Positions 21,469 through 24,710 of a stretch of DNA of 24,710 nt are shown in pieces; the first letter of the stretch is position 1; each line of letters begins with the position of its first letter. Both the position numbers and the translations under genes were made by a program. The notes below the pieces were generated by a model. That model was not told the origin of the DNA. It saw only the letters and a program-made list of their open reading frames with translations, and did no database searches. Origin of the DNA: a virus (taxonomy: Duplodnaviria > Caudoviricetes); IMG/VR virus record IMGVR_UViG_3300035139_000043, positions 1 through 24,710 of that record; one strand, given 5' to 3'.

Positions 21469-21774
21469 ATGGCAAAAGATAATACAGAACATCATACTTC
21501 AGGAGTTTATGAAAAATTCTGTAAACCACGATTTGAAGGAATAGAGGAAGATATAAAGGATACACAAACAACAGTTCATAGTATAGATAAAGTTGTGAAT
21601 GATGGATTAAAAGATAAAACAGAAAGATTAGAAAAACATAGCAATTGGATTATAGGTTTATTAATTAGCTTGTTATTTATAATTATTGCATCTACAATTG
21701 GATTATACGCAACAAATCAAAACAAAGTTGAACAGGTAAATGAAAAAGTAGAAAGGTTGCTAAATGATAATTAA
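21469..21774 (+). CDS. Putative holin/XhlA-like membrane protein
   Basis: Coiled-coil N-terminus plus one TM (WIIGLLISLLFIIIASTIGLY); first gene after the fibres. Confidence 0.6.
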   Translation: MAKDNTEHHTSGVYEKFCKPRFEGIEEDIKDTQTTVHSIDKVVNDGLKDKTERLEKHSNWIIGLLISLLFIIIASTIGLYATNQNKVEQVNEKVERLLNDN

Positions 21775-22246
21775 ACAATATAATACTGATCTTCACCCAT
21801 ATATTCAAACTGATGGTTGTTTATTTATGTCTTTACTTGATATTGCTTGTGATTATTGTAAAGCAAAATGTCAACCTGCTTTAAAAAGTGAATTGACAAT
21901 TGCAGAAGTAAATAAAATATATTGGTATGCAATACCCCAATTTATGCAAGATGGTAGACAAGCACAACAAAACAGATGCTATATTTTAAATCATGCAGAA
22001 ATTATTAGATTGGGTTTTTATATACTTGGAAAACGAAATATGTTTATACAGTACTTATATCGTGATGATTTTGATCCTTCAAAAAGTTTTGGAGAAATTA
22101 AGGGATGTAATTATTTTATAACTGAAATTCAATTACCTACTTTTAATCATTTCTATAGAAGTGATGCAGATGGAAATGTTTTATATAATCCTGGTAGAAG
22201 TTTTTCAAATAATATAGAAAGCACAAGAGGATATAAGATTGAATGA
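21764..22246 (+). CDS. DUF261-like papain/C39-type cysteine hydrolase, candidate endolysin
   Basis: IKQ...L...IQ..GC.F.SL, CYILNH..I, HF and LYNP resemble Borrelia DUF261 proteins as I recall them; residues Q5, C19, H129, N142; occupies the endolysin position. Confidence 0.65.
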   Translation: MIIKQYNTDLHPYIQTDGCLFMSLLDIACDYCKAKCQPALKSELTIAEVNKIYWYAIPQFMQDGRQAQQNRCYILNHAEIIRLGFYILGKRNMFIQYLYRDDFDPSKSFGEIKGCNYFITEIQLPTFNHFYRSDADGNVLYNPGRSFSNNIESTRGYKIE

Positions 22247-22649
22247 AAAAATTATACCTATCATTCTTATTATTCTTATTGCTGTTGCCTTGTTTATCGG
22301 CTACGGATTTGGAAAAAGAATTAGTAATAGAGAAATTAAATCAGCTAAAGATACAATTAGTGAACTTGAAAATACAATCGGAAAACTTAACACAACAATT
22401 ACAGCAGCAAAATCAGAATATAATGAACTTGAAAAGTTATATAGAGCAGATAGAGAATCAATTGAAAATCTCAAAAACGCAAATAGAGAACTTGGAACTA
22501 TCCTTGAACAACAAAGAAATATCATTAGAGAAATTGAAAAAAGAAATTCAGAAGTTGGAGAATCAAGTACAGGAATTACAAAAGGAATTGCAGAAGCTAT
22601 CACAACAGTTGATGCAATTATTAAAACAATCAAGAAAGGAGAAAATTAA
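22239..22649 (+). CDS. i-spanin-like protein (N-terminal TM plus coiled coil)
   Basis: TTG start 7 nt after AGAGGA; IIPIILIILIAVALFIGYGFG followed by about 105 aa of heptads; lysis context. Confidence 0.65.
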   Translation: MNEKIIPIILIILIAVALFIGYGFGKRISNREIKSAKDTISELENTIGKLNTTITAAKSEYNELEKLYRADRESIENLKNANRELGTILEQQRNIIREIEKRNSEVGESSTGITKGIAEAITTVDAIIKTIKKGEN

Positions 22650-22734
22650 AGTTGGTTTAATAGTTGGTGGTGTTTCGTTTTCAATCGGTGTAGGTACTGG
22701 ATTAATTTTATTTCAGTTACTAAGGAGTGATTAA
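22243..22734 (+). CDS. Overlapping spanin-partner-like protein (signal peptide, coiled coil, C-terminal Gly-rich TM)
   Basis: MKKLYLSFLLFLLLLPCLSA signal; L/Q/E heptads; VGLIVGGVSFSIGVGTGLILFQLL tail; +1 frame over 22239..22649. Confidence 0.65.
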   Translation: MKKLYLSFLLFLLLLPCLSATDLEKELVIEKLNQLKIQLVNLKIQSENLTQQLQQQNQNIMNLKSYIEQIENQLKISKTQIENLELSLNNKEISLEKLKKEIQKLENQVQELQKELQKLSQQLMQLLKQSRKEKIKVGLIVGGVSFSIGVGTGLILFQLLRSD

Positions 22735-22735
22735 A

Positions 22736-23098
22736 ATGGGTGAAAAGAGTTTACTAAAATCAAAAACCTTTTGGGGTATGATTGCAGCAATTATACTTGC
22801 AATTATATCGTGGATAACTGGACAACAAAGTTTACAAGCAGTAGTGCTTGAAATTGTTGGTGCAGTTGGTGTTATTTTTCTAAGATCAGAAATAGATAAC
22901 AATCTTAGAAATTTTTTCAACAAATTTAATTGGTTCACCAATAAAACCGTTTGGGTTGCTATTGCAGCAGCACTTGGGTTTGTAATTTCCTGGTTAGCAG
23001 GGGAAATTGAATTGTTGCAAATGTTAATTGGTGTAGTAACTGCAATTTCAGGTATCTTTCTTAGAAGTGCTGTAGAACCTGAAAACCCTGGTACATGA
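22736..23098 (+). CDS. Holin-like membrane protein made of two tandem repeats (about 4 TM)
   Basis: AAGGAG 22722-22727 favours ATG 22736; two copies of KT(F/V)W..IAA....ISW..G.......V.A...IFLRS. Confidence 0.7.
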   Translation: MGEKSLLKSKTFWGMIAAIILAIISWITGQQSLQAVVLEIVGAVGVIFLRSEIDNNLRNFFNKFNWFTNKTVWVAIAAALGFVISWLAGEIELLQMLIGVVTAISGIFLRSAVEPENPGT

Positions 23099-23137
23099 TA
23101 AAAAAAGTACATCATTAAATTTTAAGGAGTAAAAAGA

Positions 23138-23839
23138 ATGATCAGAAGTAAATCAATTATGAAAGGTGTTGTTAGAGCAAAAGTAATTTCCCTTGATCCT
23201 GTTGGAATTGAAAAACTTGAAGCACTAAGAATTCAATTCCCTGAAAGAAAACAAAATCCAGATTATTTTATTGCACGTGATGCAATCTATAAAGAACATA
23301 GTTTTAGAAAGAAAAGAACAACTTGGAATTTTAAAGTATTTACAACTATGGTTGCTTGTGCAATTAGAAAAAATTTCCGTGAAGCTTTTGAAGTATTAAA
23401 ATTTGAAACTGCTGTAAACCACAACATAGTTACCGATGAAGGGGATGCACTGGTTGCTGATAATATGGCAAATACCCCTGCACGAACTAAAGTTGATCAA
23501 ACAAATGGACACATTACAGTTGGTACAGGGTGGACAGGAACAACCCCAAAACAAAATACAGCAGTAAATACACCTACTGGTTCACCTGAAGTAATGGATA
23601 CAGGTTATCCAGTACTTAAAGGAACATGGGGAAATACAGATGATAATGTTGTACAGTATCGTGCAACTTTTGAAGCTGGTGATTTAAACCAAACTGGAAT
23701 TGATGAAGCTGGTTTAGGAAATAATGCAGTTGAAGCTTCAGGTGATAATTTGGCATATGGTCAAATTACACCTTCAGTTGATGTTGCTTCAACAGATACT
23801 TTGCAGGTGGATTGGGAAATAACTTTTTTGGGTGCATAA
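23138..23839 (+). CDS. Virion structural protein (collar/fibre-attachment-like)
   Basis: NIVTDEG...VGTG...VQYRATF.AG...I.EAGL.N....G....DTLQVDWEITF is a widespread phage structural pattern; capsid-type RBS. Confidence 0.65.
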   Translation: MIRSKSIMKGVVRAKVISLDPVGIEKLEALRIQFPERKQNPDYFIARDAIYKEHSFRKKRTTWNFKVFTTMVACAIRKNFREAFEVLKFETAVNHNIVTDEGDALVADNMANTPARTKVDQTNGHITVGTGWTGTTPKQNTAVNTPTGSPEVMDTGYPVLKGTWGNTDDNVVQYRATFEAGDLNQTGIDEAGLGNNAVEASGDNLAYGQITPSVDVASTDTLQVDWEITFLGA

Positions 23840-23843
23840 ATTA

Positions 23844-24245
23844 ATGGCAACTTTTATTGTCAGATGGGAATCATCCTGGATGGAATTAGCTGATCGCACT
23901 GATTGGGGTGTAGGTAAATTAAAACAGTATGATCAGCGATACATTCAGGGTGATCCTGTTTCTGTTGTAGCTGATGGGGTTTTATTTGATCCTTTAACAG
24001 AAACTTGGTTACAAGAAATAACAAATCCTAAATGTGTTGGTGTACACGTTTATGATTTATCATTAGCTGAAGCAGAAGCATTTTTAGTTGCTTATCGTTC
24101 AGGTGAAACTATAATATTTAAAAGGAAATATACAATTGATAAATTAAATTTACCTACACCTTTAGTTGATAGAATTGAAGCAGAAAGAAAAGTTGAAGTA
24201 ACAAGGGATCAATTTAATGCAGCTATAAAAGATAAAAGTGTATGA
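23844..24245 (+). CDS. Hypothetical protein, possibly a fibre-associated chaperone
   Basis: ATG 23844, 4 nt after the upstream stop (preferred over GTG 23832); ATGA coupling to the next gene. Confidence 0.55.
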   Translation: MATFIVRWESSWMELADRTDWGVGKLKQYDQRYIQGDPVSVVADGVLFDPLTETWLQEITNPKCVGVHVYDLSLAEAEAFLVAYRSGETIIFKRKYTIDKLNLPTPLVDRIEAERKVEVTRDQFNAAIKDKSV

Positions 24246-24574
24246 ATAAAAAAAGAAAGGTTTCTATTCTAAGTGATTTAATATCTGGTGAATTAAATAG
24301 AAGAAACCTTTGGTTATTTGCTGGTATTGAACCAATTGGATTTTTTAAACAAGAAAATCAGAAATGGTATATTAAAATTAATGGTTGTTCATCTTGTGGA
24401 AAATGTTGTATTGATGCAAATGTTTTTAATACAGGAAGATGTAAATATTTAAAACAGGTTTCTAAAATTACAACTGAATGTGAATTAAAATTAAATCGTC
24501 CTTTTAACTGTTCAACAGATGATGGTAGAAATAGCATCCCTGAATGTACAGTTAAATATAAAAAGGTGGAATAA
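24242..24574 (+). CDS. CxxCxxCC (YkgJ/FliB-like) Zn or Fe-S cluster protein
   Basis: CSSCGKCC...CKYL...C....NRPFNC...C, eight Cys in total. Confidence 0.75.
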   Translation: MNKKRKVSILSDLISGELNRRNLWLFAGIEPIGFFKQENQKWYIKINGCSSCGKCCIDANVFNTGRCKYLKQVSKITTECELKLNRPFNCSTDDGRNSIPECTVKYKKVE

Positions 24575-24710
24575 TTGGGTAAACTAAAACCACCAGTATT
24601 AACATCTTCACGTATTTGTGATGCTTCACGTGTAGCTATTGCTGCTGATGATACACCAGTAAAAAAACAGAATTGGGAAAATGAATTTATTTTATGTACT
24701 CAAATTGAAG
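24575..24710 (+). CDS. 5' part of the next ORF (partial), MGKLKPPVLTSSRICDASRVAIAADDTPV...
   Basis: TTG directly after the upstream TAA, AAGGTGG SD, open to the window end. Confidence 0.65.
   Translation, partial: MGKLKPPVLTSSRICDASRVAIAADDTPVKKQNWENEFILCTQIE

Follow-up and report, generated by a model that had tools for sequence, protein, structure and literature searches.

In two-component spanins a type II subunit works with a lipoprotein; a spanin survey names other topologies only as possibilities, a type I inner-membrane subunit being an untested one (PMC6139136). In lambda Rz/Rz1 and P2 LysB/LysC the outer-membrane subunit is such a lipoprotein, and T1 gp11, itself a lipoprotein with a beta-rich periplasmic domain, acts alone (PMC6139136). 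Looking for lipoboxes, the survey left 91 of 677 phage genomes without a spanin (PMC6139136), and the spanins of Leptospira were predicted by lipobox (PMC8705779).

Here we describe a pair of overlapping genes, frame A (22239..22649, plus strand, 136 aa, TTG start) and frame B (22243..22734, plus strand, +1 frame, 163 aa, ATG start), that rather probably form a two-component spanin without a lipoprotein. They lie in a stretch of 24,710 nt, hereafter the window, a 24.7-kb part of a siphovirus-like genome in which terminase, capsid, tail, and tape-measure genes are followed by a lysis region. The initial annotation had set this pair apart from Rz/Rz1 and from T1 gp11, and both distinctions stand. 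Compared with lambda Rz/Rz1 and P2 LysB/LysC, B is longer than A, fully helical, and without a lipobox, has a Pro-free coil, starts 4 nt after A, and carries its anchor at the C terminus. In a sister subtype it is the first gene that encodes the lipoprotein, and the inner-membrane subunit appears to be type I. The outer-membrane lipoprotein of the lambda and P2 systems has no counterpart here: a pattern scan of every frame of the window and of the rest of the same phage’s 45-kb contig gave no canonical lipoprotein gene, a negative that, like all our lipobox negatives, refers to the canonical pattern. B resembles T1 gp11 in its N-terminal export signal and C-terminal hydrophobic segment, but it has neither the N-terminal lipoprotein signal nor the beta-rich periplasmic domain of a unimolecular spanin, is predicted as one helix, and always occurs with A. 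The +1 frame and the extension past A formally resemble the “overlapped” spanin class, but the common stretch takes up 407 of A’s 411 nt. Judged by its sequence, the pair would function like a two-component spanin but lacks the lipoprotein that this class demands. Searches of open-access text yielded no description of such a pair.

The neighbors of the pair suggest a lysis cassette, a position for which the endolysin and holin genes are themselves candidates. A 101-aa protein (21469..21774, plus strand) with a soluble N-terminal half and one transmembrane segment is a holin or antiholin candidate, with a weak PHROG holin match (E 0.034). It is followed by a DUF261-like candidate endolysin (21764..22246, plus strand), then by A and B, and then, behind TAAGGAG, by a 120-aa multi-pass membrane protein (22736..23098, plus strand; the 120-aa form is a public-data call), a possible holin for which family searches gave no match of note. 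Virion-like genes resume downstream of the cassette (23138-24710), with a 1156-aa frame starting at the window’s end. Two longer records of this phage are 99.97% identical over the stretch compared; on the opposite strand of the 45-kb contig (L013) we read by eye a polymerase-like and helicase-like block. A spirochaete host is suggested by the DUF261-like gene and by the relatives of the pair. All 24 public runs listed with the stretch 21700-23150 are wetland metagenomes of 2020, nine of them possibly its source, and the one RNA run contained 6% of the stretch’s words.

The two starts lie 4 nt apart (TTG 22239, ATG 22243) behind an SD-like AGAGGA (22226..22231, plus strand), which precedes the TTG by 7 nt and the ATG by 11 nt; in 12 other genes this spacing is 4-11 nt. 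Rereading the sequence bears out these starts, and also the common stretch of 407 nt (22243-22649). The further suggestion that one SD sets the stoichiometry of A and B is not borne out: the ATG of B is interlocked with the upstream gene’s stop codon (ATGA 22243-22246, absent from the initial annotation), so that B need not depend on the common SD, and start offsets vary among relatives, being 4 nt in 40 of 79 pairs.

Given protein A and the phage’s codon usage, 11.8 stops would be expected in B’s frame and none is seen (P 1.5e-8); the reverse test, for A being open given protein B, gives P 2.6e-7. The longest open +1-frame run among 28 other window genes is 94 codons, against 135 here. Frame A avoids TTA, ATA, and GTA, the codons that give stops in B: its Leu is encoded by TTA in 1 of 10 cases, versus 354 of 614 in other genes, and its Ile by ATA in 1 of 24, versus 159 of 585. 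Codons ending in A or T make up 23 of 27 in the B-only tail, like ordinary genes, versus 80 of 132 in the overlap. Selection acts on both frames. Contigs of four wetland runs hold a single difference (22407, Ala57Thr in A, silent in B).

Heptads run through both frames, as had been noticed, with a hydrophobic period of 3.50 in A30-132 and B22-133, a value that 0 of 1000 shuffles reach; B is predicted as a single helix (residues 2-162, pLDDT 91.5). Part of this twin anatomy is forced by the genetic code, since NTT in A reads Leu or Phe in B; 28 of 39 hydrophobic positions of A are also hydrophobic at the same index in B. The hydrophobic N-terminus reported for both frames is present, but that of B is not independent evidence, because recodings of A reproduce it: 95 of 200 synonymous stop-free recodings equal or exceed the hydropathy observed. 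The coil of B has 37 hydrophobic residues versus 52.5 +/- 3.9 in recodings of A, 0 of 200 being as low, and 5 of 200 are as periodic. The polarity and periodicity of B’s coil are evidence independent of A’s coding.

Frame A has a transmembrane anchor at about residues 5-25, a heptad region of about 110 aa, and no Cys, and matches the PHROG Rz-like spanin families 739, 89, and 214 at E 7e-6 to 5e-5; we infer an Rz-like inner-membrane subunit, type II with a periplasmic coiled coil. Frame B combines a signal peptide, with a likely SPase I site after Ala20, heptads over about 115 aa, and, encoded past A’s stop, a Gly-rich, weakly hydrophobic C-terminal segment of 19 uncharged residues. B is predicted to be the outer-membrane subunit.

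Direct searches did not reach relatives of the pair. Word searches with A and B found none, B had no match among the INPHARED phages, neither exact protein was found in a public collection, and the only sequence that the window’s proteins recovered from viral, metagenome, and genome contigs was the same phage, at 99.97%. Atlas matches to unnamed clusters, at 0.90-0.92 with low recognition, are leads only, and L006 proved to be a chance coil. Relatives were reached by using the upstream DUF261-like gene as an anchor. The resulting B alignment matches 12 of 401 Spirochaetota genomes and, once enlarged, 69 of 381 genomes within a single spirochaete family, to which we joined five viral contigs. 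Among the 89 loci examined, six were dropped (L146 and L149-L152, weak matches in unrelated proteins, and L148, a broken B-like C-terminal piece with A’s frame open for only 40 codons) and four were duplicates, leaving 79 distinct pairs. Both frames are open throughout this set, an arrangement retained in dozens of spirochaete prophages: A is open for at least 89 codons past B’s start in 79 of 79 (median 131), while the third frame is open for at most 46 codons. Third-position change in B is lower in the overlap (0.24-0.47) than in the B-only tail (0.37-0.57) in six of six groups.

Profiles built without the window give its B 47.5 bits and its A 29.3 bits, versus shuffled maxima of 30.9 and 21.5, and kinship with the family is probable by these scores. 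Convergence is possible, since the window’s pair sits on a long branch (4.27) and the link rests on those bits and on the architecture. A family-level search around G214 gave 0 of 4 and missed even G214’s own pair, which shows that distant members can escape the B profile.

The family occupies the slot expected of the spanin pair that the initial annotation proposed: 66 of the 79 pairs lie behind a gene of peptidoglycan-hydrolase type within about 1.5 kb upstream (C39-like 22, CHAP 16, DUF261 16, M15 9, M23 3), and in the other 13 the upstream stretch examined holds no hydrolase gene. Among those without one are the lipoprotein-A pairs L083, L084, L136, L138, L142, and L147, those of L083 and L084 following apparent tail genes.

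The window’s own upstream gene falls under the cut-off of Pfam DUF261 (PF03196; 17 bits versus 26.1, E 0.0065), has a profile match of 93.6% to the DUF261 member Borrelia BB_RS06020, and matches 21 of 401 sampled Spirochaetota genomes; against phages and plasmids it gave nothing significant. G18-C19 and H129-F130 are invariant in the 14 rows of the DUF261-like alignment, and the best fold matches of the predicted model are all papain-like, with middling Z scores of up to 6.5. A papain-like Cys-His peptidase, and with it a candidate endolysin, is predicted from this model. We read 14 phage-type DUF261 cassettes, a set outside the Borrelia plasmid matches: seven have a double-coded pair, five a canonical i-spanin and lipoprotein (by eye), one a type II protein with a lipobox-free partner, and one neither. 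None of the 14 shows both the double-coded pair and canonical spanins in the stretch examined, and the two genomes that best match the window’s DUF261 clade are both among the seven with the pair. Within cassettes DUF261 itself swaps with CHAP, M23, M15, and C39-like genes. The Borrelia cp32 copy (L015:24609-25034) is also a candidate endolysin, though 9 kb from blyA, on account of the invariant Gly-Cys and His-Phe, the predicted papain-like fold, and the exchange with hydrolase genes. The cassette count leaves out matches that sit in long non-phage proteins (L039, L040, L042-L045, L051); in these the DUF261-like domain ends long repeat-containing proteins, followed by small signal-peptide genes. 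Such an arrangement of a long repeat protein tip and a small downstream gene resembles polymorphic toxin tips with their immunity genes.

The 79 pairs fall into two subtypes. Frame A is a lipoprotein in 47 (eight lipoboxes, missed by the script, were assigned by eye; the unedited result points the same way, p 6e-9) and a plain transmembrane protein in 32, the window included, which have the sequence of a type II i-spanin. We compared anchors in 77 full-length pairs, excluding L119 and L132, which reach contig ends, and called a B C-terminal segment strong below -1.25, on a hydrophobicity scale summed without position terms. Strong segments occur in 43 of 46 pairs with lipoprotein A versus 0 of 31 with transmembrane A; the window’s own is weak (+0.9, with at most two charges behind it), and three more transmembrane-A pairs, found by endolysin alone, score +1.3, +3.5, and +4.8. 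The median number of basic residues behind the segment is 3 with lipoprotein A versus 1 with transmembrane A, and an acidic residue lies inside it in 1 of 46 versus 14 of 31. Because the subtypes are largely clades, this covariation amounts to one to three events, not 77: the subtype label changes twice on the B tree and three times on the A tree, with one change forced by strong branches. An Rz-like PHROG match is found in only 4 of the 31 transmembrane-A proteins.

One member of the family is carried by the syphilis spirochaete. Frame B of G106 (L069:1467-1944, G106:C1) is identical in sequence to Treponema pallidum TP0222 (TPANIC_0222, hypothetical protein), and TP0222 is a B-family member by profile. 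It lies at a chromosomal housekeeping locus without a lysis cassette and is annotated as one hypothetical gene; the A frame of G106 is intact, with 135 codons and an N-terminal hydrophobic segment (P 1.3e-4 by chance). TP0222 is transcribed (PMC12223175), detected by MS in 4 of 12 in vivo samples (PMC10600179), and treated as hypothetical (PMC10013896). Two motifs of the G106 A frame had 0 matches in the 1261-protein MS database.

We suggest the following mechanism for the lipoprotein-free spanin. An N-terminal helix would tie A to the inner membrane, and about 110 of its residues (16 nm if helical) would extend into the periplasm. After export and removal of its signal peptide, B would pass the translocon completely, C-terminal helix included, and that helix, Gly-rich and weakly hydrophobic, would lodge in the outer membrane; that this helix reaches the outer membrane is the least supported step, and the window’s segment, with its score and few charges, could instead stop transfer in the inner membrane. 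Together the two proteins would form a parallel rod anchored once in each membrane and kept in place by peptidoglycan until the wall is taken down by the holin and the DUF261-type enzyme; the coils might then refold antiparallel, draw the two anchors together, and fuse the membranes. In the sister subtype the rod would be turned around, with A as a lipoprotein of the outer membrane and B as a type I protein of the inner one, so that in either subtype the coils would carry an inner-membrane anchor at one end and an outer-membrane anchor at the other.

Anchors of these types can be read from the sequence, which upholds the earlier view of two coils anchored at opposite ends; the “SNARE-like” label is not supported. 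Like SNAREs and class I viral fusion proteins, A and B have long heptad regions and two membrane anchors, and the Gly-rich, weakly hydrophobic end of B recalls a fusion peptide, although by analogy only. SNARE coils zip up in parallel, which puts both of their anchors at one end, whereas those of the window’s pair are at opposite ends and would meet only by antiparallel pairing, which, as in the hairpins of class I viral fusion proteins, may join anchors at opposite termini.

Four other readings bear on this proposal. That the locus holds a single gene, its second frame being open merely as a side effect of the genetic code, is very improbable: NTT codons in A do yield Leu and Phe in B, B’s N-terminal hydropathy does follow from A, and translation of A has been observed nowhere, but the probabilities of the open frames, the polarity of B’s coil and its own tail, MS detection of a B homologue, the lipoboxes found in A in 47 of 79 pairs, and the 79 of 80 B-like matches that keep A open all stand against it. 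B might instead be a spirochaetal lipoprotein, lipidated at Cys17 and with a C-terminal inner-membrane helix, that acts as an all-helical unimolecular spanin to which A is accessory. Lipoboxes of spirochaetes follow a looser pattern than those of E. coli. Cys17 after a hydrophobic run, together with the C-terminal hydrophobic segment, would fit the topology of T1 gp11 (PMC6139136). The residue at -1 is Pro, however, and hydrophobic residues follow the Cys; TGY codons in B’s frame arise from NTG codons of A; and the lipoboxes of the family sit in A. Moreover, the scan for a canonical lipobox with a polar stretch behind it picked out 0 of 79 homologues, and a loose pattern for an SPase I-like site 73 of 79; Cys is missing from the first 30 residues in 10 of 79, and the B of L178 has none either. 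We hold this reading to be highly unlikely; of the two signals first considered for B, SPase I cleavage is favored and lipidation at Cys17 is not.

A more serious alternative, though still an unlikely one, is that both proteins reside in the inner membrane, A as type II and B as type I, and form either a coil needing an outer-membrane partner from the host or a holin regulator that times lysis. A signal peptide and a 19-residue uncharged C-terminal segment are type I anatomy, and pairs with lipoprotein A show the segment as an unmistakably strong helix followed by basic residues; yet it is weaker, shorter-tailed, and often interrupted by Glu exactly where A has no lipobox, the pair takes the place of canonical spanin pairs in DUF261 cassettes, and separate holin-like genes flank it. 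Finally, the pair could be an envelope protein with a job other than lysis, such as membrane tethering, vesicle formation, or superinfection exclusion, and be kept by the host lineage for that reason. This would agree with G106, which keeps both frames between a VanY-type carboxypeptidase and an aminotransferase when 0 of 20 other treponemal loci carry the pair (some of them reaching contig ends), and with the transcription and translation of TP0222 without a phage. A single domesticated copy also fits reuse of a lysis module, however, and the placement of 66 of 79 copies behind hydrolase genes of five families argues for lysis; we judge a non-lysis role quite unlikely, if slightly less so than a lipoprotein B.

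The lipoprotein-free spanin is part of a broader proposal, possible but short of probable: spirochaete phages may carry a double-coded fusion rod that works either way round, the two coils staying the same and the outer-membrane anchor being an N-terminal lipid on A or a C-terminal Gly-rich helix on B; the window’s form would be a lipoprotein-free spanin with an alpha-helical outer-membrane anchor; and the syphilis spirochaete would have domesticated the window’s form, with a second, unannotated membrane protein inside TP0222. If true, a helix at the C terminus can serve as the anchor for outer-membrane fusion, and the device works in both orientations. A lipoprotein-free pair in two frames is a candidate for part of the gap left by the phage genomes without a recognized spanin, and gene callers miss one or both frames of such pairs. 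The locus is also a rare case of two structured proteins with nearly all codons in common, explained by the code (NTT to Leu or Phe). For TP0222 the proposal offers a testable origin and predicts a second, unsearched protein there.

A further locus, L153 (G296:C119, minus strand), matches neither the A nor the B profile. It encodes a type II protein with a +1-frame partner that overlaps it by only 46 codons; the partner lacks Cys, begins with a signal peptide, and has at its C terminus a Gly-rich segment resembling that of the window. From its sequence, L153 is possibly an independent lipid-free pair or an intermediate.
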